The translations under genes were made by a program, and so were the position numbers. A stretch of 64,000 nucleotides of DNA from an uncultured Spirochaetia bacterium. GTDB taxonomy: Bacteria > Oederibacteriota > PGYV01. The stretch covers positions 104,418 through 168,417 of the forward strand of contig CAYQIS010000001.1 in assembly GCA_964417645.1 (NCBI GenBank), written 5' to 3'. Of this stretch, positions 17,780 through 44,418 are shown piece by piece; position 1 is the first letter of the stretch; every line of letters begins with the position of its first letter. Below the pieces are notes generated by a model, which searched no databases, had not been told where the DNA came from, and worked only from the letters and a program-made list of their open reading frames with translations.

Positions 17780-18781
17780 CTAGAACCTTACAAAAAGTCC
17801 AATTTTCTGATTTAATCCAAGTTCCCCGAAAGGCAATATAGTGTAATCAAATTCGTATTCTGTTGCATCAAACTTTATGCCAAGCCCAAGGCCGGCGGTA
17901 AATCCGGAAAAAGATCTTGCTTCAGGATTAAAATTGCTTCCAAACCTTATCCCAAAAGTATAATTTTCTATCTTTTGAAAGAAATCAATTCCGGCCCTTA
18001 AATTAATTCCATTTCCCAAATTGTAATCGGTGTCGGCCATAATAATCAATCTGTTATTAATGCTTACAATATTCATAAATTCGGCAGAAGCCCCAAATAC
18101 CGCGGTTAAAGGTGTAATACCCGCCGTAAAACTTGTGCCAAGATTTCTTGCCGAAAATCCCAAAAGAACTTTATGCAAAAGAAATTCCCCGCGATTTGAC
18201 ATAAAATCAGAATCTTCAATCAAAATCGTATATATGGCTCCGGCATCAAGTGAAACCGACATATTTTCATATACCCCGGCAAGCGATTCACCTGTAAATT
18301 TAAAAGCAAATCCCACATTTAAATCCTTTGTAAAATCATTATAAATCCATTTTTCAAAATCGATGCCGTAGCCCGCAGAAGCAAGATAATTAAATCCTTT
18401 TAATTCTGTTCCTCTGCCCATATAATTTCCCTGATTATCTTCAAGTGTGCTTGTTATACTTCCTGTATCAAGGTACTTTATGCTTACGGCAAAATTTCCA
18501 GCATCCCCCATTGACGAAGCGAAATAAAGCGAATCAAAAAAAGTATCCTGAAAATATAAATCATGCACAAATAAAAATTCTGATTTTTTTACAAATGATA
18601 TTCCTGCCGGATTACCGTCCAAAGAATCCGCTCCCAAAACATAAGCGGCCGAAACTCCGCCAACCGCCTGAGACCTTATACCTGCCGGAACTTTTAATAT
18701 GTCAACAGCTGCAGTTCCGGCCGCCGCTAAAGCCCAACAAGGCAGCGCAAAAACGATTAATAAAATCAAAAATTTTTTCAT
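17780..18781 (-). CDS. PorV/PorQ-family-like outer-membrane beta-barrel protein (T9SS cargo-shuttle homolog candidate)
   Basis: Signal peptide, then AGTAAVDILKVPAGIRSQAVGGVSAAYVLGADSLDGNPAGIS. This fits the conserved N-terminal motif of PorV/PorQ (UPF0164) barrels: L.I..aR..a.G..Gva...Da.s...NPAg. C-terminal ...GLFVRF ends in Phe. Its ATG overlaps the stop of the giant CTD-bearing gene (ATGA). Confidence 0.5.
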   Translation of the reverse strand: MKKFLILLIVFALPCWALAAAGTAAVDILKVPAGIRSQAVGGVSAAYVLGADSLDGNPAGISFVKKSEFLFVHDLYFQDTFFDSLYFASSMGDAGNFAVSIKYLDTGSITSTLEDNQGNYMGRGTELKGFNYLASAGYGIDFEKWIYNDFTKDLNVGFAFKFTGESLAGVYENMSVSLDAGAIYTILIEDSDFMSNRGEFLLHKVLLGFSARNLGTSFTAGITPLTAVFGASAEFMNIVSINNRLIIMADTDYNLGNGINLRAGIDFFQKIENYTFGIRFGSNFNPEARSFSGFTAGLGLGIKFDATEYEFDYTILPFGELGLNQKIGLFVRF

Positions 18782-21700
18782 TTTATCAGGTACACCTTGC
18801 CTTTTTCTTCTTCTCCGCGCTCGGGTCTGATAATATAATAATACACTCCGGGGGCTGTTTTCTCCCCTGCTTTATTTCTTCCGTTCCATTCAACCCTGCC
18901 GGATACACCCTTTGCCTCAAACATTACAAAGCCCTCAATATTATATATCGTTACATCAGCAGGCGCAGGAAGCAGTATTTTTAAAGTGCCGCCGTGAGAC
19001 TTTTCCCTGTCATACGGGTTAGGATATACAAGAATCTGCTGAATGGGTGTCTGTGTTGGGGTTACGGTTGGTGATACAGTCCAAGTTTGTGTGATAGTCC
19101 AGGTTTGTGTAATTGTCCATGTCTGTGTTATCGTCCATGTTGGCGTTATAGTGGGAGTATTTGTCTGTGTTGATGTCTGTGTATTTGTACCGGTTGCCGT
19201 TGATGTTGGGGTGCCGGTTGCCGTGGGTGTTACCGTAGGCGTCCAAGTAACCGTAACAGTGGGCGTGGACGTACCCGTAACAGTTCGTGTAGCTGTCTGC
19301 GTGTTTGTTTCGGTTACGGTTGGCGTTGATGTTTTGGTTACAGTCTGAGTGACGGAATATGTGTAAGTAATTGTTATTGTAGGTGTTACGGTTGCCGTAT
19401 GCACGGGCGTTATTGTGTGTGTCTTGGTAATTGTATGCGTTTCTGTGATTGTGGGGGAATGCGTGTGCGTCTGGGTTATTGTAAAAGACATTGTTTGAGT
19501 GGCAGTGGGCGTTACAGTGCCTGTAACCGTTTCAGTTGCAGTCTGTGTTATTGTCTGTGTTGCAGTCTGTGTTATTGTCTGTGTTGCAGTTGAAGTGTTT
19601 GTTCTTGTGACAGTCTGGGTTATTGTTTCCGTGGCAGTCTTTGTTGCGGTGCGTGTTACGGTTTCTGTCACAGTCTGCGTGCTTGTCCTTGTCACTGTTT
19701 GTGTGTTTGTTTCGGTTGCGGTTTGTGTGCTTGTCCTTGTCACTGTCTCTGTTGCAGTCTGAGTTGCGGTTCTCGTTATGGTTCCCGTAACTGTTTCGGT
19801 TGCGGTCTGTGTTATTGTCCTGGTTGCCGTTGGTGTTGAAGTCTGTGTAATTGTACGCGTAACGGTTGCCGTTACTGTAGGTGTTGCCGTAAATGTGGGC
19901 GGGTCAATGACAAGTATCTGGTTGCTTGTTCCCGCCTTGCCCGAATCAAGCGTGTCTTTGGCGGTAATTGAAACCATGCCAAGGGTTCCAAATGTTATTC
20001 CCGTAAACTGTTTTACACCAAGATCTCCCGCTGTGAATGTATAATCCGCGGGAAGTGATGCAAGCGTATCATTTGATGTAAAGTGTATTGTGCCGGTATA
20101 ATTTGTGACAGTTTGATTATATGCATCTTTTGCCCTTACTATTATACTGTAAAGATTCTGATACGGTCCGTAAGAACGGTAAGCCGTTGACGGCGCGGTA
20201 ATTGAAAAACTTATTGAAGGCTGTGATGTTATCACTCCGGAATATCCAGTATCATCCGGGTTTGCCATTGTTGCCGTCACCACATGACCAAGCCCTGAAA
20301 CAATGGACATTAAAAGGTCTGTTGTGATTCTGCCGTTTGAATCTGTCACCCCGCTCTGCGGGTTAACAGAACCGTAATTTGTGCTGAAAGTAACGGGAAT
20401 ATTTGCAATCGCCTGAGGTATGCCGTCCTGATCCACAACATATGCCGTAATCCTTACATAAGAACCTGCAGGAGCTGATGTGGCTGACGGAGGAGACACC
20501 TTTATATAATAACCGGTGCTGATATTAAGAGTGTTTCCCGAAGCAGCAAGAACAGGCGATGCGCTTGTTTCCTGTATTCGCATTATATTCTGTCCAACAT
20601 AATGGGATTTAATATATACCACGGCCTGCCCGCTTGCATTAAGATTAAAGTTAAGGCTGTTTGACCAGCTGTTCATATCCGTCGAATAAAGCACATGCGC
20701 TGTTGCTGTTGCCGGGCTTACGGTATAAATGTTAAGCCCAAAATGGCCAGTTGTTGGCGGCACATTATATCCGGCAGCATCAACAGAACTTACGTTTAAT
20801 ATGCCTATCTTATCGGCTCCGATAGACATCGGGTTCGGAACCGCCTGTATCCTTGTTGCGGCGCTTGCCGATGATATTGTAATTGTTGTTCCAAGCAATC
20901 CGCTTGAATTTATGACACAGTAATTAAGGCTTCCGGTGGTTGAGGTGCTGGTTCTGTACCATGCCGTAATCTGCCCGTTCTCAAGGGTGTTTCCCGAAGT
21001 CGGCGTTACAAAACTTGGAGCTTTTCCTGATTGTACATAGGCCGCAAAAGTTACATCCTTGTTATTGACAGGGTTCCCGTAAAGGTCCGTTACCTTAGCT
21101 GTCAGTGTCACCCACTGCCCCGCCCCTACGGCATAAAGATTTGACCACGCGCTAAGATATGCGGGGGAATTTGCAATTGTAGTCGGATATGCCTTGCCGT
21201 CCGCAAGCACTGATGCATTATCATGAGCGGTTATTGTTACAAATTTTGCCATTACCGTATCTTTATAGTACAAATAAGAAGTCCCGCTTGCAAGAGTTGT
21301 ATTTATTGTTGTAAACCAGTTAATTCCATCCGTTGAAAAACGCATTGTTGGTGAAACTGAAGAGATATTTACACTTGCGTTCGAAGATGCGTCAACTGTG
21401 CCGTTCTTTGCCTGTACCCTGATTTGTACCGGCTCCCCTGCTTTCGCGGTGGGGGAAACAGGGGTAATTGCAAGAGATGTTGCCGGCATGTCCGCAACAT
21501 AAACCATTGCAGTGCCGGTAAGCAGAGTATAAGCGTATCCTTTTATCTGGGCATTAACCGCCTGACTGTCCTTTACAAGAATTGAATTTTGGATCGCACC
21601 GCTTAAAACAAGCGTTGGAGACCATGTTACACCGTTGTTTGAACTGAACAAACTTGTGGCCGAATCTGATGTAATCGTAATTCCGCGCGCATCGGACACA

Positions 21701-24700
21701 AAATTGCCGTTTATGTCTTCAAGACGCACAAGCAAAGTTCCCGGAACATTTGTCTGAACGCTTAAATCAGAAGGCGTAATCTTAACTCTGCTGGCAGCAA
21801 GAGGCGAAAAATTAATTGATATGCTCTTGCTCATATGGCTTAAATATGCGGTAATTTGAGAAGATCCCGAAGCCGTTGAACTTATCCTTGCATAAGCATA
21901 ACCTTTCCAGTCTGTTATTGCTTTGGAGTTTCCGCTTACAGTCAAAGGAATTACTGTATCCGAGCTTCTGTTTGAAACAAAATCAATAAGCGCACCATAA
22001 ACAGGGTTTCCGTCCGGCCTTATCACACGCGCGGCAACCGTAATGTTGCTGTAGCCGTCGGCTGGAACCGATGTTGAAGGATTAGCCGAAAGTATCATGT
22101 CTTTTAAAATGAAAATGTAGTCGTCCTGTTCAAGGGAGTTCCAGGAAGCGCCAAAAGTAACGCTGGAATAAGTCATCCCGTTAATCGGCATCACATTGTT
22201 ATCGCTGAATATATTAATTTTAACAATACCAGCGGAATCGGTAAATCTTAAATTGTCATAAATTGCATTAAATGTACCCCGCATATTTGAAGCGGCGCCG
22301 TTAAAGCCAAAGTTCCCGGTATCCTGAGACAGGAAGAATTCTCTTTCATACATGCCTCCAAGACGGCTCATATCAAAACGTCTCTTATACCATTTTCCTC
22401 TTGCATAAGCGCTTATATCCATTGAAGGGTGTATTCTTATTGCATTCTGGTCAATTATATACTGCTGTGTTGCCTGTCCAAAATCCCTGTAATTGTCAAC
22501 ATAAGGCGATGGTATTGTAGCTCCTCTTCTGTCATTTTCTATCGAACAATAAAAACTTGAACTGTAATTCGGTATGAAGACATCATATTCAAGATAATAG
22601 TTGTTCGGAATCTGATGCACGTACCTTGATACGGAAAGATATGTAAACATATAGGTGTTTGCCGTAGGAAGATATGAAGTAAGAAGCATTGGCTGGCTGT
22701 ACTGTCCGCCGGTTCCCGAAACAACAATGTTGTTGCTTGTTCCGTTCACTGCAGGGTTTACGGTGTCGGTTCCCACTATCGTATAAGTTCCGGAACTGTT
22801 AATTGTCGCGGAGAATATCCTGCTGCCGTAATCCGTGGATACAAAAGTATAATCTGGAGGCAGGCTTGCCGTTGCTCCCGTGGTAAAATGTATTGTACCC
22901 GTATAGTTTTCAACTATATTCTCATAAGCATCTTTTACCGTAACGACAAAATTAAAGCTTACTCCCATATTTGCGCTAAGCGGTGCGGTTATATCATAGT
23001 GATTGGGCGCTCCTGCAATAACATTTATGCCGTTACTGGTACCGTTAATCGAAGGCGTAACGATATCGCGCGCAGATATTGTCTGTATGCCTTTTGTGCG
23101 CAACTGAACGGGTAAAATTTTACTGCCGGCATCAGAAAGCGTAAAAACAGTATCCGACGGCAAAATCGCATTGGTATCAGTTGAAGTGAACCCCACTGTT
23201 CCGGTATATCCGGTTACAACATTATTATAAGCATCCTTCGCGGTAACCGTAATGAATATCGTCTGCCCTGCGGCTGCGGTTGCAGGCGCTTCAATTGTAA
23301 AACTTACCGCATTTCCTGTTGTAAGGTTAATATTTGCATTTCCCGGAGTCAGCACTCCGTCAGATGCGGTAATTGTCTTTAACCCGGTGTTGTTAATCTG
23401 AACCCTGAACCAGCTTACACCGCCCTCACTTCCGTCAAAAACATATGATGACGGGTCAAACCAATACGAGAGCGCGTTAGAAGTCATATTTACCGTGCCT
23501 GTATAAAGCGGATAAACAAAATCTCCGTAAGATATCGGGGCTTTTGCTCTTACAGTCACATAAAATGGCACGCCGGCTATCTGCTGGGGGGTTGCTATTA
23601 TTTCAAGATGATCCGCATACATTGTTGCGGTTGCAGTTGGGCTTGCGGTTGCGGTTGCTGTTCTTGTAACAGTTGGCGTCACTGTTTGGGTTACTGACGG
23701 CGTTGAAGTCGGTGTTGATGTCCTTGTTACAGTCGGGGTTACAGTTGATGTTACAGTGCCCGTTGCAGTGCGGGTAACCGTGGGCGTGTTTGTCGGCGTG
23801 TTTGTGGCTGTTACCGTTGGGGTTACGGTTCCTGTTGCCGTTCCTGTTGCCGTACGGGTGATTGTTGCAGTAACAGTTGCGGTTGCAGTATTGGTTATTG
23901 TTGCAGTAACAGTCGGGGTTGCAGTTCGCGTTGCGGTTAAGGTTATCGTGAAAGTTATAGTTGATGTTACTGTTTGTGTAACAGTACGGGTAACTGTCTG
24001 TGTTGCTGTCTGTGTATTAGTGGGCGTAACCGTGGATGTTACGGTCTGTGTAACTGTAGGTGTGATTGTCTGCGTGCTCGTAAGGGTTATTGTGCTGGTC
24101 TGTGTAACCGTTTGTGTTACTGTCTGTGTATTTGTAGCGGTTGACGTCCTTGTAACCGAAGGAGTTGCCGTCGGAGTTGATGTTTCAGTAACTGTTCTTG
24201 TTACAGTAGGGGTTGATGTTTCTGTTGCGGTCCTTGTTATCGTTGCAGTGACTGTTTCCGTATTTGTAAGTGTAATCGACGGGGTTATACTTGGAGTTGG
24301 TGTGTCCGTATGTGTTTGTGTAATCGTTGCGGTATTCGTAAAAGTGGGGGTTATCGAAAAAGTTGGTGTAATGGTATACGTCGGTGCGGGGTATTCCGTA
24401 TAATTAATTGTTATACTGTTTATAAACGGAGATACAAAATTGTCATAAGTCCGCAGCATTGCTTTCCAAAGTATATCCTGCCCTTTATCAGAAGGCCTTG
24501 AATCAAAATGAACGCCGATTCCCGGCGTCACCTGTATCCAAGTGGTTCCGTTATTGCTTGAAATATAATAAGCTATCTCCTGCCCGTTTAAAGTATCTGA
24601 CGCATTAAGTGTAATTGACATGTAGTTTGCAAACCAATGCGCAACAGACACGGACTGAAGCCATCCTGGCGAAGTGTACGCCGCTCCGTAAATATTCAAT

Positions 24701-26712
24701 TTTGCCCTTGCGCCGGCAATAACCCAGCTTTCACCGTTAAATGTCACGGTATTAATTTGTGATGCGCCAAAATTTTCAAGCTGAGAGGTCACGTCAGTTA
24801 TAATCGCTTCGCCGTCGGTTATACTGTATATTTTCCCCGAACCTCCCGCAACATACCATTTATCCAAATTATTGTCATAATCTATTCCGTATATGTTGTT
24901 TGCTCCCATACCCGAAAGAGTTATCTGATTCCATCCTGTCCAGTCAAAAAGAAAAAGTTTTCCGCTGTCACAGCCAACAAGTATTTTGGCAAAACCCGAA
25001 TCCTGCCCGTCCCATTCAACTACATTTATACCTGTTGTGCCTCCACCTGCATAAAAGTAATCATTTGACAAATCCTGAAATATTCCGCCGGACGGTGTAT
25101 AGCTTGCAACATTTCCGCCTGCGCCGCCTATTATCCATTTATTATTGGAATTTCCCCACCATGCAGCGGCCTTAACGGCAGCGCCGCTGTCCCAGCCTGA
25201 CGCAACAAGATCCGCGCTCCTGTCCGTATAATTATGCCCATTTGCGCTTGTTGCAATTTTATTGTTGTCTCCTCCCACAAGCCACTCGCTGCCGTTCCAT
25301 TTTATTACATTTACGGCATTTGTTCCAAAGCCAAGCTCCGTTGTCTTTGATGTAAAAGAAACGCCGTCATATGCGGCTATTTTCCCGCCCTGCCCGCCAA
25401 TCAGCCAGTATGTTCCATTCCAGGCAATCGCCAAAACTCTGGATGTGCCAAAACCAAGGCTTGTTTTAAGATCGGTAAAAGTGTTTGTTGCCTGATCGTA
25501 TTTGTTAAGGCAGCCGTCATCTCCTCCAAGCAGCCAGTAACTGCCGTTCCAGCCCGAACAGTTTATGGGCTGAAAACCAAAATCCTTTACATTATCGGTA
25601 AGTTCGTTGTTAACCGGCGAATCAACACCGCCGGTTCTGTTCATAAGTCTGGCATTTAATCCGCCTATAAAATTGTTTGTTCCGTCTGTTTCTATGGCGT
25701 AAATATTGTCATTTGAAAAGAAAGCAGGGTTGGTCTGCATATAGTATGTGTTAAGATCAGTGCTTGTATAAAGCCTTGTTGTTGATCCGTCCTGCCCGCC
25801 TATCATCCAATAGCTTCCGTTATGCCGTATAGAGTAAACCCAGGACAAATTTGAAAGCGAGCTGTAAGTGAAAGACGAGCCGTTATACTTCATTATCCTG
25901 GATGAACCTCCGCCTATTGCCCATGTACTCCCGTTCCATTCAAGCGCGTATATGTCAATTGCTCCGCCTGCGGCCGTCTGAAAATCAGAAGATAAATTTG
26001 TAAAAGTTGTGCCGTCATACCTTACAAGCCTTCCGCCCGTGCCCGCTATTAAAAAGTAACTGCCGTTCCACTTTATTGCCCTTATTGAATTTGTTCCAAA
26101 AGCCGAAGTAAAATTGGAATTGTTTATAAGAGACCAGGTTGTGCCGTCAAAACTGTTTAATTTGCCTCCCGCTCCGCCAATCAGCCAAAATTGTGTGGGG
26201 GTGTCTTTATACGCAATTGCATAAATATCAACACCGCCCCAGCCAACCAGATTTGATGTATAATCAATCCAAGTGCTGTCTCCGTTCCACCTTTTAAGCA
26301 CCCCGCCATATCCGCCCACAAGCCAATATGAACCGTTGCAGTAAGCGGCAAAAATGTCATTATCAAAACCGGCTTCCGAAGTCTTATTAATATAAACAGA
26401 ACCGTTATACCTGTTTATTTTTCCGTTTCTTCCGGCAATAAGCCAGTTTCCCGCGTTTTGATGAATTGTGTATATCGCTCCGCCCCAGTTCTGAACTCCT
26501 GTTGTTTCGGCGAACCTATTGCCACGAAGCAGTGCGCCGCGATGATTTGTGGTGTCCCAATTTGCGGTTGTATTTGAAGCGTCTTTATAAGTATTGTCAT
26601 TAAAATTTTCAGTATATGTTCCGGTTGCCGCAAAGGAATTTACAAATAATAAAAGTAAAAAAAAGAAAATCCACGCCCCACTGTAAATCTTTAAACGTAA
26701 ATGCCGCATCAT
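18778..26712 (-). CDS. giant secreted multidomain surface protein (2,644 aa): 14-blade propeller repeats, Big-like Ig domains, two TxT tracts, T9SS-type C-terminal sorting domain
   Basis: Signal peptide (MMRHLRLKIYSGAWIFFFLLLLFVNSFAATG). About 14 repeats of 45 aa with core W-N-G-S-x-W-L-I-G-G-x-G-G-K-I. Big_1/Big_2-like motifs (AKDAYNNVVTGYTGTVGFTS; ADGYSNITVAARVIRPDGNPVYGALIDF). Tracts with Thr at every second position at aa 777-1030 and 2272-2556. The C-terminal 88 aa (YPNPYDREKSHGGTLKILLPAPADVTIYNIEGFVMFEAKG…WNGRNKAGEKTAPGVYYYII…KVYLIK) match Por_Secre_tail / FlgD-Ig-like consensus. Own RBS (GGAG) and a TATAAT-like box upstream. Confidence 0.85.
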   Translation of the reverse strand: MMRHLRLKIYSGAWIFFFLLLLFVNSFAATGTYTENFNDNTYKDASNTTANWDTTNHRGALLRGNRFAETTGVQNWGGAIYTIHQNAGNWLIAGRNGKINRYNGSVYINKTSEAGFDNDIFAAYCNGSYWLVGGYGGVLKRWNGDSTWIDYTSNLVGWGGVDIYAIAYKDTPTQFWLIGGAGGKLNSFDGTTWSLINNSNFTSAFGTNSIRAIKWNGSYFLIAGTGGRLVRYDGTTFTNLSSDFQTAAGGAIDIYALEWNGSTWAIGGGSSRIMKYNGSSFTYSSLSNLSWVYSIRHNGSYWMIGGQDGSTTRLYTSTDLNTYYMQTNPAFFSNDNIYAIETDGTNNFIGGLNARLMNRTGGVDSPVNNELTDNVKDFGFQPINCSGWNGSYWLLGGDDGCLNKYDQATNTFTDLKTSLGFGTSRVLAIAWNGTYWLIGGQGGKIAAYDGVSFTSKTTELGFGTNAVNVIKWNGSEWLVGGDNNKIATSANGHNYTDRSADLVASGWDSGAAVKAAAWWGNSNNKWIIGGAGGNVASYTPSGGIFQDLSNDYFYAGGGTTGINVVEWDGQDSGFAKILVGCDSGKLFLFDWTGWNQITLSGMGANNIYGIDYDNNLDKWYVAGGSGKIYSITDGEAIITDVTSQLENFGASQINTVTFNGESWVIAGARAKLNIYGAAYTSPGWLQSVSVAHWFANYMSITLNASDTLNGQEIAYYISSNNGTTWIQVTPGIGVHFDSRPSDKGQDILWKAMLRTYDNFVSPFINSITINYTEYPAPTYTITPTFSITPTFTNTATITQTHTDTPTPSITPSITLTNTETVTATITRTATETSTPTVTRTVTETSTPTATPSVTRTSTATNTQTVTQTVTQTSTITLTSTQTITPTVTQTVTSTVTPTNTQTATQTVTRTVTQTVTSTITFTITLTATRTATPTVTATITNTATATVTATITRTATGTATGTVTPTVTATNTPTNTPTVTRTATGTVTSTVTPTVTRTSTPTSTPSVTQTVTPTVTRTATATASPTATATMYADHLEIIATPQQIAGVPFYVTVRAKAPISYGDFVYPLYTGTVNMTSNALSYWFDPSSYVFDGSEGGVSWFRVQINNTGLKTITASDGVLTPGNANINLTTGNAVSFTIEAPATAAAGQTIFITVTAKDAYNNVVTGYTGTVGFTSTDTNAILPSDTVFTLSDAGSKILPVQLRTKGIQTISARDIVTPSINGTSNGINVIAGAPNHYDITAPLSANMGVSFNFVVTVKDAYENIVENYTGTIHFTTGATASLPPDYTFVSTDYGSRIFSATINSSGTYTIVGTDTVNPAVNGTSNNIVVSGTGGQYSQPMLLTSYLPTANTYMFTYLSVSRYVHQIPNNYYLEYDVFIPNYSSSFYCSIENDRRGATIPSPYVDNYRDFGQATQQYIIDQNAIRIHPSMDISAYARGKWYKRRFDMSRLGGMYEREFFLSQDTGNFGFNGAASNMRGTFNAIYDNLRFTDSAGIVKINIFSDNNVMPINGMTYSSVTFGASWNSLEQDDYIFILKDMILSANPSTSVPADGYSNITVAARVIRPDGNPVYGALIDFVSNRSSDTVIPLTVSGNSKAITDWKGYAYARISSTASGSSQITAYLSHMSKSISINFSPLAASRVKITPSDLSVQTNVPGTLLVRLEDINGNFVSDARGITITSDSATSLFSSNNGVTWSPTLVLSGAIQNSILVKDSQAVNAQIKGYAYTLLTGTAMVYVADMPATSLAITPVSPTAKAGEPVQIRVQAKNGTVDASSNASVNISSVSPTMRFSTDGINWFTTINTTLASGTSYLYYKDTVMAKFVTITAHDNASVLADGKAYPTTIANSPAYLSAWSNLYAVGAGQWVTLTAKVTDLYGNPVNNKDVTFAAYVQSGKAPSFVTPTSGNTLENGQITAWYRTSTSTTGSLNYCVINSSGLLGTTITISSASAATRIQAVPNPMSIGADKIGILNVSSVDAAGYNVPPTTGHFGLNIYTVSPATATAHVLYSTDMNSWSNSLNFNLNASGQAVVYIKSHYVGQNIMRIQETSASPVLAASGNTLNISTGYYIKVSPPSATSAPAGSYVRITAYVVDQDGIPQAIANIPVTFSTNYGSVNPQSGVTDSNGRITTDLLMSIVSGLGHVVTATMANPDDTGYSGVITSQPSISFSITAPSTAYRSYGPYQNLYSIIVRAKDAYNQTVTNYTGTIHFTSNDTLASLPADYTFTAGDLGVKQFTGITFGTLGMVSITAKDTLDSGKAGTSNQILVIDPPTFTATPTVTATVTRTITQTSTPTATRTITQTATETVTGTITRTATQTATETVTRTSTQTATETNTQTVTRTSTQTVTETVTRTATKTATETITQTVTRTNTSTATQTITQTATQTITQTATETVTGTVTPTATQTMSFTITQTHTHSPTITETHTITKTHTITPVHTATVTPTITITYTYSVTQTVTKTSTPTVTETNTQTATRTVTGTSTPTVTVTWTPTVTPTATGTPTSTATGTNTQTSTQTNTPTITPTWTITQTWTITQTWTITQTWTVSPTVTPTQTPIQQILVYPNPYDREKSHGGTLKILLPAPADVTIYNIEGFVMFEAKGVSGRVEWNGRNKAGEKTAPGVYYYIIRPERGEEEKGKVYLIK
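18781..19044 (-). other. T9SS-type C-terminal sorting domain (CTD) of the giant protein
   Basis: YPNP…hydrophobic strand…IYNIEG…WNG.N..G…GVYYY…K…L.K matches the type-A T9SS CTD (TIGR04183-like) pattern. Confidence 0.6.
19045..19899 (-). repeat. coding low-complexity tract: about 285 codons of alternating Thr (T-x-T-x), ending in WTITQT x4
   Basis: Translation of the minus strand gives PTFTATPTVTATVTRTITQTSTPTATRT…WTITQTWTITQTWTITQTWTVSPTVTPTQTP. On the plus strand it shows as a periodic GT-rich (gtN) run. The V-x-V shadow ORFs 19043..19348, 19499..19762 and 19778..20044 are artefacts of this. Confidence 0.85.
23623..24385 (-). repeat. coding low-complexity tract: about 254 codons of alternating Thr (T-x-T-x)
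   Basis: PTYTITPTFSITPTFTNTATITQTHTDTPTPSITPSITLTNTETVTATITRTATETSTPTVT…ATATASPTATAT. The plus-strand shadow ORF 23756..24403 (V-x-V) is an artefact of this. Confidence 0.85.
24640..26500 (-). repeat. about 14 tandem protein-level repeats of 45 aa (beta-propeller blades) in the giant protein N-terminus
   Basis: Recurrent units such as IYAIAWNGSYWLIGGQGGKIAAYDGVSFTS, AIKWNGSYFLIAGTGGRLVRYDGTTFTN and CSGWNGSYWLLGGDDGCLNKYD. 14 units is consistent with two 7-bladed propellers. Confidence 0.6.
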
Positions 26713-26772
26713 TTAAAACTCCGTTTATTCCGCCCCTTAAATAATTATATCAAAAAAAACGGTTAAATAAAA

Positions 26773-28049: not shown

Positions 28050-28053
28050 TATT

Positions 28054-29321: not shown

Positions 29322-29483
29322 GGAAAGCTCCTTCCTGATTAAGTCATTTTTTATTATTACATAAAAGGGAAATTATTACAACCACATTATTGATAAGGAC
29401 AGCTTTTACAGGCATAAACACTTGTGCCGTATTACAAAACTTTTTACTTTTTATTTGTATATTAGTAATGTATAATAATTATT

Positions 29484-32935: not shown

Positions 32936-32954
32936 AGATTTTATATTTTTTATT

Positions 32955-34994: not shown

Positions 34995-36029
34995 TTATTG
35001 CCCGTATCCGTCCCTGTTTTTTATTGCAGTTTTTCCTGTAATTTTCACTCGGATAAACTCATATGAATATATGAAAAAAGTAGCAAGACAAACCGGAATA
35101 TGCCAAATCCAAAAAATTCCAGGTTTGCGAAAAAAACCAACAAAAGTCTGAAATATTAAAGGCAGAACTGTTATACAAGAAACAACGAACATCAAAATGC
35201 CTTTTAAAGGAAATTTTTTCCAAGGATATTTTCTATGTCCATACGAACTAAAATACATAAAATCTTTAACACGTCGATCCTGTTTTTTAAGAAACAATCT
35301 GAATTCAGGAGAATAAATATGTATTATTCCTATATTAACTTTTGCAAACTTCTTTAAACCCTTCTCCATCATTTGATATACTGCATCTATATCAAAAAGA
35401 TAAGGAGAATATGATGTTGCTTTCAAAATATCGGCTCTCAAAAAAGTTCCATTTGCCCCTATTGTCGGCATTCTATTTTTTTCTAATTCAATCAATATGT
35501 ATCCTTCCATTTGCTTAGTCTTAAGTTTCATCCCTGTCCATTTCCCCGTAATATAACTATATCTGTCATAATTTCCTATAAAAAGGCACAAAGGATCATT
35601 GATTCCGGCACATGCAAAATATTTTGTAAGACTTTTATTTTTTTCGTTATATGTAAAATATATTGGCTCACTTCCTAAAATTTCCGGTTCTTCAAGAAAA
35701 GGCAATACCATTTTACTTATAAAAGAAGTTTCCGGCATTATGTTGTCGCTATCTATGAATGCAAGTAATTCTCCAACAGAAATCTTTACAGCCTCGGCCT
35801 TTCCTGCTTCACCGGTTTGAAGCGGATTTGAAATTATTCTTATTTTCAATTTATCCATAAAACTCTTTATAATCTGAATTGTTCTGTCTTTTGAACCTGC
35901 GTCCGCAATGACCACTTCAAAAAGCTCTTTAGGATAATCTTGCAGGCATATTGCCTCTAAGCATTGACCTATAACACTCTCTGAATTATAAACAGGCGTA
36001 ATAATAGAAACAAAAGGTAATTTTTTCAT
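34995..36029 (-). CDS. family-2 glycosyltransferase (GT-A fold)
   Basis: N-terminus …PFVSIITPVYNSESVIGQCLEAICLQDYPKELFEVVIADAGSKDRT… plus a DxD-like motif (…AFIDSDN…). 344 aa with a C-terminal hydrophobic segment. Confidence 0.6.
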   Translation of the reverse strand: MKKLPFVSIITPVYNSESVIGQCLEAICLQDYPKELFEVVIADAGSKDRTIQIIKSFMDKLKIRIISNPLQTGEAGKAEAVKISVGELLAFIDSDNIMPETSFISKMVLPFLEEPEILGSEPIYFTYNEKNKSLTKYFACAGINDPLCLFIGNYDRYSYITGKWTGMKLKTKQMEGYILIELEKNRMPTIGANGTFLRADILKATSYSPYLFDIDAVYQMMEKGLKKFAKVNIGIIHIYSPEFRLFLKKQDRRVKDFMYFSSYGHRKYPWKKFPLKGILMFVVSCITVLPLIFQTFVGFFRKPGIFWIWHIPVCLATFFIYSYEFIRVKITGKTAIKNRDGYGQ

Positions 36030-37474
36030 TTCCTAATCTTCATAAAATCAAGAATATGCCCCGTAACCGCTTTACCCGCCTTAAACAAGAAACTTAAATC
36101 TTCAAAAGACCTTATTGAAAAAAGCTGGCGCAGCATAAAACGCGGCGTCATGAAAGCTCTGTATATACTGTTACACATGGCTACAACTTCTTCATCTGTC
36201 ATGTCCGGTGTTTTAAATACGGGTTCTGTCATATCAAATTTTTCCCATTCACCCGGTTTTATCTTCAGCCAGCCATTTTGAACCGCCTGATCGTAAAGCG
36301 GTGTTCCCGGATATGCCGTAACAACAGTTGCCTGAAGCATATCGGCAAGCCCTTTATCAAGAAGCTTTCTGGCAAGATCAAGGGTCCGCTGAGCGTCTGC
36401 CTTTGTTTCCCAAGGATATCCCACCATTACGGTTAAATGCACTCCAAGTCCGGCGTCTTTTGCCGTTCTGCAACCCTTCTCTATATCTTCGACCTTTGTC
36501 CCCTTGCACAGCCTGTCCAACGTTTCCTGATTTGCAGACTCAAGACCGAATTTCATAAGTCTAAAACCCGCTTTTTTCATAAGAGGCGCTATTGAAGGAT
36601 TTATATAATCAAACCTGAAATTACACATCAAAGAAATCTTATAGTCTCTTTGTATCATTCCTTCACAAAATTTTTTAAGCCATTCTCCCCTGGGAAATGT
36701 TCCTGTGTCATCAAATATTTCCCTTATTCCGTATCTCCTTACAAGCATATCTATCTCGGAAAGCAGACTTTCCGGGCTTCTTGTGCGAAACTTTGGAAAC
36801 AAACCTGTCCATGCACAAAAAGTACATTTGCCCCAAGGGCAGTCGCGTCCTACCATTGTATATGTATAAGGCGCATATTTAAAAAATTTTTCCCCGTATA
36901 ATTTCCACTTTGTGAGATCGCGGTCTATAAACGGAAGCGAATTTAAATCATATTTAAGCTCAAATCTGCCGGTATCCTTTATGGTTCCATTATCCCTGTA
37001 CCACGTACCCGGTTCAAGAGCCGCTTTACCGTTTAAGTTTTCCGCCACGCCAAGAAGCATAAAATCAAAATCTCCGCCTGTTATAACATAATCAAATGTT
37101 GAGTTCTGCATTGTTTCCAAAGGAAAAGCCGTTACATGATCTCCCATAATAACTGTTTTTACATTTGGCAGTATTTCCTTTATTTTGGCTTCTATCCGCC
37201 ATATCTGCCTTACAACAGGAGTCTTTGTTTCAATGGCTATAAGATCCGGCTTTTCCTCAATCAAAAGCTTCTCATAACTTTCCCAATTCATGAACTCCGC
37301 AATGGAGTCATTATAAATTACATCATAACCTTTGTTTTTAAGCAAAGTGGCGGCAGAAGCCGGCACCATCGGATAAATAAAAGAAGGATTATGAAACCAC
37401 TGAAACTGCCTGTTCTGCCCAAGAGTCGGAGTTCCTTTGCCTTTAAGCGGCGGGTATGATATCATTACCTTCAT
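36026..37474 (-). CDS. B12-binding-domain radical SAM protein
   Basis: N-terminal Rossmann-like cobalamin-binding region (…KPDLIAIETKTPVV…VIMGDHVTA…), then a radical-SAM core with a cysteine triad reading GRDCPWGKCTFCAW (C-x4-C-x2-C spacing as translated). 482 aa. 4-nt overlaps with both neighbouring genes. Confidence 0.7.
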   Translation of the reverse strand: MKVMISYPPLKGKGTPTLGQNRQFQWFHNPSFIYPMVPASAATLLKNKGYDVIYNDSIAEFMNWESYEKLLIEEKPDLIAIETKTPVVRQIWRIEAKIKEILPNVKTVIMGDHVTAFPLETMQNSTFDYVITGGDFDFMLLGVAENLNGKAALEPGTWYRDNGTIKDTGRFELKYDLNSLPFIDRDLTKWKLYGEKFFKYAPYTYTMVGRDCPWGKCTFCAWTGLFPKFRTRSPESLLSEIDMLVRRYGIREIFDDTGTFPRGEWLKKFCEGMIQRDYKISLMCNFRFDYINPSIAPLMKKAGFRLMKFGLESANQETLDRLCKGTKVEDIEKGCRTAKDAGLGVHLTVMVGYPWETKADAQRTLDLARKLLDKGLADMLQATVVTAYPGTPLYDQAVQNGWLKIKPGEWEKFDMTEPVFKTPDMTDEEVVAMCNSIYRAFMTPRFMLRQLFSIRSFEDLSFLFKAGKAVTGHILDFMKIRK

Positions 37475-38454
37475 CTTTTTTCCTCTTCTTTTAGCCTGCC
37501 TTTTAAAAGCCCGGCAATGAAATATGTCCCATAAACAATATGATTTATAAATATTCCAGGAATCAAAAGCATTGCCCTTACAAAAGATCTCAGTTTTATG
37601 GCGTCAATCAAAATAAGTATAGCATACAAAAGCAAAGGCAAAGACCACCAAAGAATATATTGTTTTAACCATATAAAAACAGGTATAAAACTCAAAAGAT
37701 AAAGCAAAAACATTGTTGGAATAAAATACGCAGGTCTAAGAGATGTTTCCGGAAACTTTTTTACAAAGTATCCCCTGTGAAGCGCGTAACTTTTTACCTG
37801 TTTTATATGGCCAAAAGGAAAATCCCGCCTGTGATGGTATACAAATACATCAGGGTCATAAGCAATCTTCATTTTGTGGTCCCTTGTTATTTTAAGACAA
37901 ATCACCGTGTCCTCACCCGGCCAGAATTCCGTGTTAAAACCTCCTATTTTATCCAATACATCTCGCCTTATAAGAAGGTTGCAGGAAGGATAATCGTCCA
38001 CAAAACGCGCGTGTTCCGGAATATAACGGTAGCGGTAGCTTCCTCCGCCCATAAAAGAGGCGTAAATATCTCCGCTAACCTTTTTTAACAGAGAATCATT
38101 TTTCGGAGTAACTGCCGGGCCGCCAACAGCCGCTATATCTTCCGAACTTTCAAATATTTCAACAGCCTTTTTAAGCCATTGGGATTCAGGAAAAACATCA
38201 TCGTCTATGAATGCCACTATCTCGCCTTTACTCAGATTTATGCCCCTGTCGCGCTTTTCCCCCGGATATATGTGAGTGGTCGGGACAATTTTAAGGTCAA
38301 AACTGAATTTTTCTTCAATTTTCTCGTCATTATCAGGCAGCACTATTACCTCAATTTTGGACTTATCGTAATCCAATGCATCTATATAAGGAAGCGACTC
38401 CCTTATGTAATCATTTATCTCTTTAACAGGTATTATAATGCTTACTGTTTTCAT
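37471..38454 (-). CDS. family-2 glycosyltransferase with C-terminal TM helices
   Basis: …VSIIIPVKEINDYIRESLPYIDALDY… and …VAFIDDDVFP… (DxD). C-terminal roughly 90 aa has 2-3 TM helices. 327 aa. Confidence 0.7.
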   Translation of the reverse strand: MKTVSIIIPVKEINDYIRESLPYIDALDYDKSKIEVIVLPDNDEKIEEKFSFDLKIVPTTHIYPGEKRDRGINLSKGEIVAFIDDDVFPESQWLKKAVEIFESSEDIAAVGGPAVTPKNDSLLKKVSGDIYASFMGGGSYRYRYIPEHARFVDDYPSCNLLIRRDVLDKIGGFNTEFWPGEDTVICLKITRDHKMKIAYDPDVFVYHHRRDFPFGHIKQVKSYALHRGYFVKKFPETSLRPAYFIPTMFLLYLLSFIPVFIWLKQYILWWSLPLLLYAILILIDAIKLRSFVRAMLLIPGIFINHIVYGTYFIAGLLKGRLKEEEKR

Positions 38455-39185
38455 CAGACCTTCTTATCGTAATACTTAAGTATATGCAGCCGGTAAAAAA
38501 CTGCCAGCGTGTCCCACAGCATCCTGAAAATGGTCTTAAACTTTATATGACCGTATTTCCCCTTAAAATCCACGACAACAGGGGCTTCGGATATTTTATA
38601 TCCGTAATGATGGGCAAGAATAAGAAGTTCCAGGTCAAAAGCATAACGTTTAATAAGCACCTTATGGAAAATGTTTTTTAAAACCTCTGCCTTAAAAAGC
38701 TTTATTCCAGTCTGGGTGTCTTTAAGCGGAAGACCAAATAAAATCTTTACAAGAAAAAAATAAACAGCGGACATTATTCGCCTGCTCCTTGGATAGTGAA
38801 GTACCGACCTTTTATGACGTTTGCTGCCAATTACAACATCAGCGTTTTCGTTTTTTAAAACCTCAAACAGCACCTCGAACTGCCTTGGGTGTATATCAAG
38901 GTCGCCGTCAAGGAACATTATCAAGTCTCCTTCGCAGTGCTTGAACCCTTCCTTTAATGCCTGTCCTTTGCCTTCGTTTTTTAAAAGCTTTATAACCTTA
39001 ACCCTTGGATTGTTAAGTTCCTTTATTATTTCCGAAGTTTTGTCGGACGAACCGTCATCAGCAACAACTATCTCATAATCTATTCCAAGTTTTTTAAAAA
39101 AATCATCGGTTTCAAGAATACTTGCAGCCGCTCTTAATTCTTCATTATACATTGGCATTAAAACAGACAATTTTAAAAATTTCAT
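38454..39185 (-). CDS. GT2 polyprenyl-phosphate sugar synthase-like glycosyltransferase (DPM1/ArnC/GtrB-like)
   Basis: …LSVLMPMYNEE…IVVADDGSSDKT…LIMFLDGDLDIHP… (DxD), with C-terminal amphipathic/TM helices. 243 aa, matching the size and architecture of Und-P/Dol-P-sugar synthases. Confidence 0.6.
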   Translation of the reverse strand: MKFLKLSVLMPMYNEELRAAASILETDDFFKKLGIDYEIVVADDGSSDKTSEIIKELNNPRVKVIKLLKNEGKGQALKEGFKHCEGDLIMFLDGDLDIHPRQFEVLFEVLKNENADVVIGSKRHKRSVLHYPRSRRIMSAVYFFLVKILFGLPLKDTQTGIKLFKAEVLKNIFHKVLIKRYAFDLELLILAHHYGYKISEAPVVVDFKGKYGHIKFKTIFRMLWDTLAVFYRLHILKYYDKKV

Positions 39186-40429
39186 GTTTTTTTCCTTAAC
39201 GGCACATACACAAGCGCCGTGCTTCCCGCGAATATAAAAAATGTCACAATAAACATTATTGTAATTACAGTTTTGAAATCATTATGAAAATTCCACAACA
39301 AAGCGGCATATAATATAGTACCCAAAATCATAACATAAATAAAACCGTATTTTTTTATGGCAAGGCCGTAATTTATAACCACATTAAGAAGCACCAAAGG
39401 AAGTATTGCAGCTCCAAATATCCTTACTATATCCGTAATTGCGTAATATTTTTCACCGCCTGTTAGCGCCCAAAGCACAAATTTCGGAAAAACAGCGCAA
39501 AAAACAATTCCCAGCAGCGATATTCCGGCTGTAAGAAATATGCTCTTCATCAGCAGTTTTTTAGTGTCTTCATTTAATTCATGCATGGAAGCGGCTTTCG
39601 GAAACAGGCTCATAACAACAGCGCTCGGAAAAAAAAGAAAAGCTTTCCCTATTATTGAAGTTACCGCGTAAAATCCGGCTTCCTCCGCATTAAAAAAATG
39701 TTTTACCATAAGCAAATCCATATAACTTAAAACGGAAAAAAATACCATTGCAAAAAACACAGGCAAAGCATATTTAACCAATTCCCTTTTGCTTATATCG
39801 CCTCTTTTATCCTCCTTATAACCGAATATCCATTTAAATCCCATAATACCTGCCGCAAAAGCGCACAACGCAGCAAAAAATGATGAAGCCAATGCTCCTC
39901 TTACCCCAAAACCCATATTTACAAAAATAACCAAAAACATAAATCTGAGACCGGTATCAAGAACATTATTCATTCCCAATGCAAGAAACTTCTGCATACC
40001 TTGAAGTATTCCTCTTACAAGAGGCATCATTATTGACATCATTGCAATTGCACCCAAAATAAAAACAAGCATTTTATCCTTTATATTAAAAAAAGACGAT
40101 ATCAATTCCGCAGATAAAGCAAAAAAAAGAAAATATCCAAAACCAAGCACAAGGAAACCCAAAAAAGTGTGTTTAAAAAGAGCTTCAACGCCTCCGGGAT
40201 TATTATGCGCAATGCATACGCTTGTTTTTCTTACTATCGACATCTGCAGAGCGTTTGCAGGCATACCGGCTATTATCAGCATTGCCAGCATGGTGGCAAG
40301 TATACCGTACCCTTCAGGCCCAATTGTACGGGTTGCATACATATGAAAAATAAAATTCACGGCATTCGCCACGCTGGTTGTTGCGAACAAGATTGCGGAA
40401 TCTCTTACCAGCCCGTCTTTATGGGACAT
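39182..40429 (-). CDS. Wzx-like (MOP-superfamily) oligosaccharide/polysaccharide flippase
   Basis: 415 aa with about 12-14 TM helices and a typical N-terminal …ILFATTSVANAVNFIFHMYATRTIGPEGYGILATMLAMLII… segment. 4-nt overlaps with neighbours. Confidence 0.6.
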   Translation of the reverse strand: MSHKDGLVRDSAILFATTSVANAVNFIFHMYATRTIGPEGYGILATMLAMLIIAGMPANALQMSIVRKTSVCIAHNNPGGVEALFKHTFLGFLVLGFGYFLFFALSAELISSFFNIKDKMLVFILGAIAMMSIMMPLVRGILQGMQKFLALGMNNVLDTGLRFMFLVIFVNMGFGVRGALASSFFAALCAFAAGIMGFKWIFGYKEDKRGDISKRELVKYALPVFFAMVFFSVLSYMDLLMVKHFFNAEEAGFYAVTSIIGKAFLFFPSAVVMSLFPKAASMHELNEDTKKLLMKSIFLTAGISLLGIVFCAVFPKFVLWALTGGEKYYAITDIVRIFGAAILPLVLLNVVINYGLAIKKYGFIYVMILGTILYAALLWNFHNDFKTVITIMFIVTFFIFAGSTALVYVPLRKKT

Positions 40430-40431
40430 TA

Positions 40432-41463
40432 TTATTTTTGGGCCTCATATAAAGGTTTAATCTTTACTATTGTACCTTTGTTAACCTCTGATATATATAT
40501 ATTGTCTTCCTTATCTATGGCTATACCCAAAGGATCGGCAAACAGAGGTCTGTTATCCCTGCCTGTTTTAATTGTTCCTATGTATTTAAATTTAGGATGT
40601 TTTGTGTTATAAACCCAAATCTCTTTTGTCCCGGACGATACAGCATATAATCTGTCCTGAGAGTCCACCGCAACATGCGGCCACATCGGCGCAGCTTCCT
40701 GCCATGCCTTAACCTCTATTTGGCCTATGGGATTAAGGTCAGATGATAATATATCAATTCTTCTGTTCCCGGGATCACCAACATACACACGATTTTGGGA
40801 ATCAAATGCGATTCCAAAGACTTCCTGAAAATTTCCAAGCGATTTACCGCGCGCTCCGAAAGGTTTCCCTATCCTGTTTCCGTCAACATCAAAACGATGT
40901 ATTCTGCTTGTGCCCGTATCCGCAACAAACATTACGCCGTATTGATTTATGGCAACATTTCTGGGACTGTAAAATCCGGCTTTTTCACCGCCCACCTCAA
41001 GAAGAAACTTGCCGTCTTTGTCAAATTTTTGTATCCTTCCGTTCCACGCGTCAGCAACATAAAAATTTCCGTCTCTGTCAACAGACACACCGGAAGGCTC
41101 CTTAAACTGGCCTTTCTTATCCCCTTTTTCCCCGTAGCTTGCAACATATTCTCCGTTAAGTTTAAACCGGTCTATCCTGTTATTATTCAAACTGGCAACA
41201 AGCAATGTGTTATCCGGGGCCACTGCAATTCCTCTCGGCGAATTTAAACTGCCCTTTTTTTCTCCGTGTCCTCCAAATTCCGCCAATTTGTCAGCTTTAA
41301 TATATTTAACCGGCTCTCCTCTTTTAAAAAACCCTATCATAATAACGGCGGCAACAACCGCAACCGCTATCAGCAGTCCCTTAAATCCGCCTTTTTTCTT
41401 TTTTCCTTTTTTTGCTTTTTTACCTTTTTTCTTTGTTTTTTTAACAACTTTTTTCTTGGCCAT
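40432..41463 (-). CDS. membrane-anchored NHL-repeat beta-propeller protein
   Basis: Lys-rich N-terminus plus a TM helix (LLIAVAVVAAVIMIGFF). Six NHL-like units (…SPRGIAVAPDNTLLVASLNNNRIDRF…, …PSGVSVDRDGNFYVADAWNGRIQKF…, …GIAFDSQNRVYVGDPGNRRIDI…). Confidence 0.7.
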   Translation of the reverse strand: MAKKKVVKKTKKKGKKAKKGKKKKGGFKGLLIAVAVVAAVIMIGFFKRGEPVKYIKADKLAEFGGHGEKKGSLNSPRGIAVAPDNTLLVASLNNNRIDRFKLNGEYVASYGEKGDKKGQFKEPSGVSVDRDGNFYVADAWNGRIQKFDKDGKFLLEVGGEKAGFYSPRNVAINQYGVMFVADTGTSRIHRFDVDGNRIGKPFGARGKSLGNFQEVFGIAFDSQNRVYVGDPGNRRIDILSSDLNPIGQIEVKAWQEAAPMWPHVAVDSQDRLYAVSSGTKEIWVYNTKHPKFKYIGTIKTGRDNRPLFADPLGIAIDKEDNIYISEVNKGTIVKIKPLYEAQK

Positions 41464-41475
41464 TTTTTCCTCCGC

Positions 41476-42444: not shown

Positions 42445-42468
42445 TTTCTCCTCCTTAATAATTATTCA

Positions 42469-44397: not shown

Positions 44398-44418
44398 TAT
44401 ATCCTCCTTAAAAAGGTT

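Follow-up and report, generated by a model that had tools for sequence, protein, structure and literature searches.

Proline/threonine (PT) linkers occur in secreted bacterial glycoside hydrolases, for example in cellulases of Cellulomonas fimi and Caldicellulosiruptor, and are extended and, where studied, O-glycosylated. Serine-rich-repeat (SRR) regions show a dipeptide S-x periodicity, and fish antifreeze glycoproteins are built as (AAT)n with every Thr glycosylated. In serine-rich-repeat proteins (SRRPs) two repeat regions flank or follow the binding modules; the long one by the C-terminal anchor forms a stalk, and the regions differ in length and have little sequence in common (PMC7661464). 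Streptococcal glycosyltransferase (GT) pairs of the GT-A + GT-C kind glycosylate extracytoplasmic Ser/Thr-rich disordered regions and so guard against proteolysis (PMC12041528), and Agl23 of Haloarcula acts on hexose-P-dolichol serving extracellular N- and O-glycans (PMC11182771). Here we analysed a giant exported protein of an uncultured Spirochaetia bacterium, encoded in a 64-kb stretch of DNA (GenBank assembly GCA_964417645.1, contig CAYQIS010000001.1, positions 104,418 to 168,417; hereafter the window). The protein contains two long tracts, written (T-x)n and called tract 1 and tract 2, in which Thr occupies every second position. Tract 2 lies ahead of a C-terminal sorting domain (CTD) of the kind that type IX secretion systems (T9SS) use. 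Coordinates of all features are collected in Table 1.

A sequence-only reading of the window had described tract 2 as about 285 residues with Thr at every second position. We found this tract within 3 nt of the place given, and its translation has Thr at 137 of the 142 positions in phase, Ser at four and Val at one, with zero register slips across the 283 residues. The second tract named there (23623-24385) was also real, ending at 24381, and its Thr phase holds 121 Thr and 6 Ser in 127 positions. Against a background of 10% Thr outside the tracts, tract 2 has a binomial probability of ~10^-128 and tract 1 one of ~10^-111. Fourier analysis of the Thr positions, which had been proposed as a check, gave a period-2 power of 36-50 times the mean within the tracts and at most 7 times the mean elsewhere. 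No third such tract was found in a six-frame scan of the 64-kb window, and the V-x-V frames open on the opposite strand proved to be shadows of the tracts, as suggested. The C-terminal end of tract 2 reads TWTITQTWTITQTWTITQTWTVSPT; of the four WTITQT units originally counted, three are exact and the fourth has diverged (Tandem Repeats Finder, TRF: 4.8 copies, 77% matches). The Trp residues here are spaced by 6 residues, or ~2 nm if the chain is extended. Aromatic-rich x positions directly ahead of the CTD were also seen in several homologues. The tract does lie just ahead of the sorting domain, since only PIQQIL separates it from VYPNP, with which the CTD opens.

The 141 x positions of tract 2 are occupied by Q (21), V (20), A (17), I (16), P (15), R (8), S (8), E (8) and others, and V/I/W/F/Y/M together account for 33% of them. 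With Pro at 15 of 141 x positions, or 5% of residues, this is not a typical Pro/Thr linker, and the first reading was right to say so. Thr itself was never found at x, either in tract 2 (0/141) or in tract 1 (0/126; 0/267 overall), and Ser was found there 18 times. TT dipeptides are absent from both tracts, in contrast to mucin-type regions. Codons for A, I, P, S, N, K, R and M each lie one substitution away from ACN, yet no Thr has appeared at x; in the tracts of homologues it was found at 41 of 3,050 x positions (1.3%). Duplication of whole (T-x) units alone would keep the register without accounting for Thr-free x positions, and the absence of Thr there points to purifying selection for strict alternation.

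The order of the giant protein is signal-peptide-like segment, ~770 aa of 'WNGSYWLIGG' repeats, tract 1, immunoglobulin (Ig)-like and Big_1 modules, tract 2 and the T9SS-type CTD. We used the whole giant protein as query in a homologue search and obtained 15 homologues of the same architecture ('WNGSYWLIGG' region, tract 1, middle modules, tract 2, CTD). Both tracts were found at the same two positions in 15/15 homologues and in an orthologue (locus L007). Among the homologues tract 1 ranges from 43 to 381 aa and tract 2 from 121 to 445 aa, with 4-23% Pro; the more distant ones (P0009-P0015) have 10-23% Pro, grading towards the PT-linker type. The sequence PAPTYTITPT at the start of tract 1 is conserved among homologues. 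The orthologous locus (L006/L007) encodes a protein of 2,731 aa with tracts of 292 and ~344 aa, and in L006 the genes downstream are as in the window: a PorV-like gene, a DUF374-sized gene and a RelA-sized gene (RelA assigned by size and N-terminal sequence). Identity between the window protein and the L007 orthologue is 46-53% in the folded regions, 64% in the CTD and 35-40% at the x positions of the tracts, and the tract lengths differ by about 39 and 61 residues. In the sequences compared, the position of the tracts is conserved and their sequence mostly is not. Cluster mates of homologue P0005 and several other matches are named Candidatus Goldiibacteriota, so the diderm host of the window probably belongs to this phylum or close to it. 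The relatives derive from activated sludge and other mesophilic metagenomes.

Within tract 2, an ungapped alignment of 10 family members (A4) contained a conserved island of ~35 residues. Among the x positions of this island, conservation reaches at least 90% at I35, P37, P43 and I53, and P51 does not vary. An aromatic residue or His stands in column 45, and column 44, which is in the Thr phase, never holds Thr in the 10 members. The single Val exception in tract 2 falls in this never-Thr column. The consensus of the island is I-[TS]-P-T-x-T-x-[TS]-P-[PEVD]-[FYWH]-T-x-T-x-[TS]-P-[TS]-I-[TS]. In 6 of 11 tracts the island sits close to the centre; the arm on its C-terminal side measures 83-139 aa in all 11 and the N-terminal arm 69-327 aa. 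A second pattern, T-[I/V/A]-T-[Q/E/R/K/P] with a period of 4, was found in homologues P0001-P0004, in which hydrophobic and polar x residues alternate above shuffled controls (z 4-6); this alternation is weak in the window tracts (z 1.0-2.7). When a C-terminal piece of 477 aa was modelled by AlphaFold with a 4-sequence alignment, tract 2 received a predicted local distance difference test (pLDDT) score of 22-36 (10-residue block means). Residues 105-408 of the piece were all below 50, and the last Ig-like domain and the CTD scored ~70-89.

The claim that the protein is exported held up on several features. The N-terminal segment resembles a Sec signal peptide: as read from the sequence, its n-region is basic, its hydrophobic core spans 14 aa, and an SFA-A site is present. 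Pfam searches matched Big_1 (62.8 bits) and CHU_C (31.0 bits against a cut-off of 27; aa 2585-2641), each above its cut-off. The CTD was modelled as all-beta (pLDDT 69-81, block means), and a Foldseek search with the CTD-bearing model gave the PorZ entry 5m11 as best Protein Data Bank (PDB) match (69 columns, rmsd 2.2 A, E 8.4e-4) and also matched 8glk_D, a 75-residue chain of a T9SS NucA-substrate complex entry (TM 0.66). NCBIfam T9SS CTD models gave no match to the giant protein at E<=0.01; for homologue P0002 the precomputed Pfam annotation gives Por_Secre_tail. The CTD is conserved in all homologues, with the motif [VI][YF]PNP. The PorV/PorQ-family-like gene that overlaps the stop codon of the giant gene scored 57 bits with NCBIfam NF033709, below the cut-off of 90, and its counterpart in locus L004, a 461-aa open reading frame (ORF; 2263-3648), scored 111 bits, above the PorV-family cut-off. 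In L006 (7648-8655), L008 (17950-18954) and L009 (15204-16211) the cargo gene, meaning the gene of the tract- and CTD-bearing protein, has a gene of 334-336 aa behind it. The pairing of a giant CTD cargo with its own PorV-like gene looks like a dedicated cargo-shuttle module outside Bacteroidota. Of the T9SS core (SprA/Sov, PorK/L/M/N, PorU and PorV), only the PorV-like gene was seen among the scanned ORFs of the window.

Two further observations were made on these genes. L009 contains two tandem pairs of cargo and PorV-like genes (second PorV-like gene from 25088 onward). The N-terminal region of the giant protein (24382-26628, aa ~29-777) has 'WNGSYWLIGG'-type repeats every ~45-50 aa with no Pfam match; they are weakly similar to the very large repeat proteins P0020, P0022, P0024 and P0027, and this similarity suggests a widespread, unannotated propeller-like repeat.

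The sequence-only reading had also pointed to a large glycosylation island in the window, and a nine-gene island of this type is present. The best PDB match of its 243-aa glycosyltransferase family 2 (GT2) protein is the Pyrococcus Dol-P-Man synthase 5mlz (1.4e-20), followed by weak matches to PgfS and AglJ. The GT-C protein belongs to the TIGR03663 'Agl23' family (288 bits, cut-off 126); phmmer against solved structures returned nothing for it, and a 4-sequence profile gave a weak ArnT match (E 0.005). The DUF2298 protein gave only zinc-ribbon noise against the PDB. When genomes were scanned with the GT-C protein, three loci encoding it emerged (L003, L004 and L005; 55-63% identity). The gene order of the island is annotated in L004 and was recognised in L003 by matching ORF sizes and order; the B12/radical-SAM enzyme and the two NHL-repeat beta-propeller proteins are annotated members of the island in L004, with ORFs of the same size in L003, and might serve in sugar methylation or as periplasmic partners. 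In L004 (metagenome-assembled genome (MAG) ELA348, JBAXIL010000002.1) the island starts right downstream of a (T-x)n cargo gene and a PorV-family gene. This cargo (3-2309), cut by the contig end, has a Pro-poor (T-x)n tract of more than 544 aa with Phe-rich x positions (TFTQTFTKTFTDT...) and the same type of CTD. The island could be a candidate modifier of the tracts, of a kind able to act on an exported protein.

Elsewhere in the window, two tandem membrane proteins with Wzy_C and TPR domains are encoded at 3299-4882 and 5340-7634 (minus strand), near pilin-like (N_methyl) genes. The Wzy_C family includes protein O-oligosaccharyltransferases of the PglL/PilO type, and these two proteins are a second candidate route to protein glycosylation.

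On balance we lean towards a reading of tract 2 as a membrane-proximal spacer, an extended and probably O-glycosylated stalk of the giant exported protein; what we infer in it is that the chain is extended, that it serves as a spacer and, most of all, that it is glycosylated. Sec would carry the protein across the inner membrane, and its globular modules would fold in the periplasm. There the unfolded Thr tracts would probably be O-glycosylated from lipid-phosphate-sugar donors by a GT-C enzyme, such as that of the 34995-46827 island. The CTD and the PorV-like partner would mediate passage through, and anchoring on, the outer membrane, and tract 2, remaining unfolded, would act as an extended stalk that keeps the Ig-like and repeat modules off the anchor. 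At 0.25-0.34 nm per residue, tract 1 would span about 63-86 nm and tract 2 about 71-96 nm. Glycans on Thr would stiffen and hydrate the stalk and make it protease-proof. During evolution, local tandem duplications in multiples of 6 nt would preserve the Thr register, and selection would bar Thr from x.

Several observations weigh against this stalk reading. A generic mucin-like spacer leaves without explanation the Thr-free x positions at which Ser is tolerated; it does not account for 33-54% hydrophobic x residues, nor for a conserved ~35-aa island within the tract, and the period-4 pattern is a further feature that it leaves unexplained. One AlphaFold model shows the conserved island as a long beta-hairpin, with AlphaFold on 4-10 sequences being weak evidence either way. 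As for the glycosylation genes, no (T-x)n gene was found within 10 kb of the gene island in L003 or L005, and around the cargo genes of L006, L008 and L009 the same distance contained no gene island. In the window itself ~8 kb separate the two (26712 to 34995), and because the neighbourhood (TrmD and a major facilitator superfamily transporter) is partly syntenic with L009, the proximity of the gene island may be incidental. Published work, moreover, treats Agl23 as a flippase and not as a transferase (PMC11182771). The earlier suggestion of glycan attachment therefore stands in part: candidate enzymes and the adjacency in L004 speak for it, and the absence of adjacency at five other loci speaks against it. 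Judged from these sequences, we call glycosylation of the tracts plausible and would stop just short of calling it probable.

Table 1. Positions in the window of the tracts, the giant gene and the neighbouring features discussed in the text
Feature	Positions	Strand	Remarks
Giant gene	18778..26712	minus	2,644-aa ORF; exported surface protein
Signal-peptide-like segment	26629..26712	minus	MMRHLRLKIYSGAWIFFFLLLLFVNSFA / ATGTY; read from sequence
(T-x)n tract 1	23623..24381	minus	aa 778-1030, 253 aa; between N-terminal repeat region and Ig-like modules
(T-x)n tract 2	19048..19896	minus	aa 2273-2555, 283 aa; between last Ig-like domain and CTD
Tandem duplication of 24 nt in tract 2	19535..19590	minus	ATQTITQT twice; k-mer scan; 32-nt exact repeat
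Conserved island of ~35 aa in tract 2	19348..19455	minus	aa ~2420-2455, SPTITETHTITKTHTITPVHTATVTPTITITYT
Aromatic-rich end of tract 2	19067..19152	minus	three WTITQT units + WTVSPT; 18-nt tandem period
CTD	18781..19047	minus	aa 2556-2644, PIQQILVYPNPYDREK...KVYLIK
PorV/PorQ-family-like gene	17780..18781	minus	start codon overlaps stop codon of giant gene by 4 nt
Shadow ORF, V-x-V	19043..19348	plus	complement of (ACN NNN)n; not a gene
Shadow ORF, V-x-V	23756..24403	plus	opposite-strand image of tract 1; not a gene
Nine-gene glycosylation-type island	34995..46827	minus	Pfam, NCBIfam and PDB searches
GT2, generic	34995-36029	minus	
B12-binding radical-SAM enzyme	36026-37474	minus	
GT2, generic	37471-38454	minus	
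Polyprenol-P-sugar-synthase-like GT2	38454-39185	minus	243 aa
Polysacc_synt flippase	39182-40429	minus	
NHL-repeat proteins (two)	40432-41463 and 41476-42444	minus	
Agl23/PMT-like GT-C	42469-44397	minus	
DUF2298/Chlor_Arch_YYY	44419-46827	minus	534 bits

Tracts of this type were found well beyond the homologues. When tract 2 alone served as query in a word-indexed search, 354 of the 8,000 candidates scored matched at E<=1e-3. The matches lie in unrelated proteins with T9SS type A, FlgD-Ig CTD, TadE-like, CAP, DUF11 and PPC domains, and the taxa named included Goldiibacteriota, Anaerolineales, Oligoflexia and Deltaproteobacteria. An N-terminal hydrophobic segment was present in 19 of the 26 matches fetched, at least three of the other seven being partial or starting within the tract, and several of the 26 bear C-terminal sorting domains. 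An exhaustive HMMER search over 1.84 billion representatives gave 2,892 matches at E<=1e-3, of which 496 reached 1e-10 and 32 reached 1e-30, and almost all such tracts appear to belong to exported proteins. T9SS or FlgD-Ig CTD signatures were seen in 4 of the 9 strong HMMER matches scanned, and one of these four is an M4 protease. Literature searches found no published description of alternating-Thr tracts, and the tract of the window is a long, Pro-poor case of a recurrent, apparently undescribed linker type. Among the matches, three Goldiibacteriota proteins of ~250 aa (P0043, P0045 and P0062) contain nothing besides a signal peptide, a (T-E/V/A)n tract of acidic character and a sorting domain of T9SS type A; such 'stalk-only' proteins suggest that the tract itself is a functional surface component.

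This wide occurrence in unrelated exported proteins also fits a simpler account, in which the tract is a low-complexity linker, flexible or extended and free of glycans, that was built up by duplicating 6-nt units, with Thr retained only as a polar, beta-branched residue of low aggregation. Between species neither the length nor the sequence of the tract is constrained, modelling in context predicts no fold, and the genomic linkage to glycosylation genes is not consistent, all of which agree with such a linker. However, a bare chain of 283 residues at the cell surface, with 33% hydrophobic x positions, should be liable to proteolysis and aggregation, and the complete absence of Thr at x (0/267) implies selection beyond composition. 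Bacterial extracytoplasmic S/T-rich disordered regions are, in addition, typically glycosylated (PMC12041528). We therefore regard the unmodified linker as unlikely, though it is the alternative that survives best.

The sequence-only reading had offered, besides glycosylation, a beta-strand-rich stalk with one all-Thr face. The chain would fold back at the P-[PEVD]-aromatic motif of the conserved island into a very long two-stranded ribbon, or stack with other copies as cross-beta, and its all-Thr face would give a rigid fibre or surface lattice. A hint of this came from an 80-aa fragment around the conserved island, for which the best AlphaFold model was a single hairpin (strands 5-38 and 46-79, pLDDT 77) turning exactly at the island. 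The near-central island in 6/11 tracts, the 83-139 aa of the C-terminal arm, the composition rich in beta-branched residues, the strict period of 2 with Thr-free x positions and the T-h-T-p period of 4 in the closest homologues (h, hydrophobic; p, polar) are also in line with strand pairing. Against it, the other four models of the fragment scored 64, 62, 46 and 35, with a predicted template modelling score (pTM) of 0.36, and the same residues received pLDDT 22-36 in the 477-aa context. AlphaFold tends to draw hairpins for alternating low-complexity sequence. In a scan of cross-strand x-x complementarity over all centres in 11 tracts, the island ranked first as fold-back centre in 1/11 only, and the length of the N-terminal arm ranges widely, over 69-327 aa. 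The 477-aa model, as a prediction, does not support a folded stalk, and with a hint from only one of five fragment models the proposed all-Thr face found little backing; we think a structured beta element distinctly improbable.

A flat Thr array, or the spaced Trp residues, might alternatively form a face that binds ice, mineral or a crystalline polysaccharide, for example cellulose. Insect antifreeze proteins use T-x-T as their ice-binding motif, and the Trp residues at the end of tract 2 are regularly spaced. Goldbacteria have also been reported as cellulose degraders (PMC7031533; the text of that paper does not mention linkers or T9SS). Such binding is nevertheless very doubtful. TRF found no solenoid-like coil period of 12-19 aa, and no solenoid was seen in the AlphaFold models of the 477-aa piece or the 80-aa fragment. 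The WTITQT amplification is specific to the window protein, with aromatic patterns that vary among homologues, and tracts of this type are also present in proteases and in TadE-like and CAP proteins. We rejected the ice-binding version in view of the missing solenoid period, the missing fold in context and the mesophilic origin of the relatives.

At the DNA level, Thr in tract 2 is encoded by ACA (62), ACG (27), ACT (25) and ACC (23), in proportions that match those outside the tracts; since all four codons are used as elsewhere, the signal sits at the protein level. TRF arrays inside the tracts were weak (66-86% matches), with periods of 6, 12, 18, 24, 36, 48 and 84 nt, every one a multiple of 6 nt, and the only exact repeat of at least 25 nt in the tract was the 32-nt repeat at 19535-19590. 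On this repeat pattern the tracts are taken to grow by local duplication of whole (T-x) units. The DNA had been called near-repetitive; it is no clean repeat, and the four Thr codons are mixed. It had also been expected to be slippage-prone and variable in length, and this is half right: tract length varies widely between species (121-445 aa), and no difference was seen between assemblies of the same organism. No strain-level length difference was found between the window and two independent Logan assemblies, which are 100% identical to it up to 19564 and both end there, inside tract 2. Likewise, none was found between L006 and L007, which come from unrelated metagenomes and have 0 mismatches in 7,590 nt. 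Both Logan contigs stop at 19564 because the 32-nt exact repeat breaks assemblies made with k=31. Several of the retrieved homologues and (T-x)n matches are likewise fragments that end in a tract. Such tracts thus break short-read assemblies, and giant genes of this kind are probably truncated or under-represented in MAGs. Although short-read contigs do break within tract 2, we rejected as next to impossible the idea that the tract is an artefact, a collapsed repeat or non-coding GT-rich simple sequence, in view of the uninterrupted 7.9-kb ORF with homologues across its full length, the concordant assemblies of the window and of the orthologue, and the diverse Thr codons.

There is also a bolder version of the glycosylated stalk. 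The (T-x)n tract might be a diderm, Thr-based counterpart of serine-rich-repeat stalks. Every second residue, on one face of an extended chain, would be decorated by a Thr-specific periplasmic O-glycosylation system of the Agl23-like GT-C and DUF2298 proteins, with Thr barred at x and the conserved island serving as an enzyme docking site or hinge. We consider this speculative and, on the present sequences, rather improbable. If true, it would mean a novel system of protein glycosylation, and with it a class of surface glycoprotein stalks that is also new, in Goldbacteria, Chloroflexi-type and other uncultured lineages. A true link to glycosylation in general would supply the first bacterial substrate class for the TIGR03663/Agl23-like and DUF2298/Chlor_Arch_YYY families, which are widespread but functionally obscure. 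If the stalk reading is true, it would account for how uncultured diderms show very large adhesin- or enzyme-like modules tens of nm off the outer membrane. The signature of Thr at every second residue, never at x, ahead of a T9SS-type sorting domain could flag, in metagenomes, proteins displayed at the surface. Should none of these readings hold, the tract would simply be an unusually regular low-complexity linker.

Compared with PT linkers, the tract has the same general form, (PT)n being (T-x)n with x = Pro. Like them, it lies between folded modules of an exported protein, is variable in length and is poorly conserved in length and sequence. It differs in that Pro is not the main partner of Thr: x is mostly Q/V/A/I/R/E, is hydrophobic in 33% of cases and is never Thr, and Pro makes up 5% of residues. 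The tracts also measure 250-280 aa, against tens of residues in classical linkers, and no PT-repeat family appeared among the Pfam matches of the giant protein at E<=0.01. SRRPs of Gram-positive bacteria (GspB, Fap1, PsrP, Srr1/2) share the arrangement of two hydroxy-residue-rich regions with the long one beside the anchor. Here, however, the residue is Thr (Ser 4/142) and the host is diderm, with a CTD of T9SS type where SRRPs have LPxTG and sortase. Glycosylation of SRRPs is cytoplasmic, whereas the candidate enzymes described here act outside the cytoplasm. The defining features of SRRPs, namely Ser dipeptides, LPxTG, and accessory Sec with GtfA/B, are missing, with no accessory Sec (SecA2/Y2) or GtfA/B genes among the annotated window neighbours.

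The GT-A + GT-C pairs (streptococcal GtrB/PgtC2 and PgfS/PgfM1; actinobacterial Ppm1/Pmt) resemble the candidate system, which would likewise act on exported, unfolded S/T-rich regions and likewise combines a GT2 like lipid-phosphate-sugar synthases with a multi-span protein of GT-C type. The GT-C found here is TIGR03663/PMT-like and not of the YfhO family, and the tracts are about ten times longer and strictly periodic. The Agl22/Agl23 pathway of Haloarcula hispanica has a family match in the window protein at 42469-44397, which falls in TIGR03663, the family named after Agl23; it differs in that the host here is bacterial, the activity of Agl23 is reported as flippase-type and the partner DUF2298 is uncharacterised. 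As in T9SS cargo of Bacteroidota, the giant protein has a C-terminal domain of ~90 aa that is recognised by a curated model (CHU_C) and predicted to be a beta-sandwich (5m11, 8glk_D), and a PorV-like neighbour; its N-terminal segment resembles a signal peptide. Unlike such cargo, it comes from a non-Bacteroidota host, NCBIfam CTD models do not match it and its PorV-like protein scores below the family cut-off. TxT ice-binding solenoids and antifreeze glycoproteins likewise present a regular Thr array, with hydroxyls or glycans on one face of the backbone. The period of the tract is 2, not 3 or 12-19; no 12-19-aa coil was found, the TRF periods being irregular multiples of 6 nt, and there is neither a predicted fold nor a cold-environment context. 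Like mucin-like S/T-rich stalks, the tract is extracytoplasmic and has no stable predicted fold, one fragment model disagreeing. Nearest in mechanism are PT linkers, streptococcal serine-rich-repeat stalks and glycosylated S/T-rich disordered regions. The tract misses the features that would make it a member of any of them and is best filed under hydroxy-amino-acid-rich surface stalks. It is not a new kind of system, but an unusually regular one that recurs in public data.

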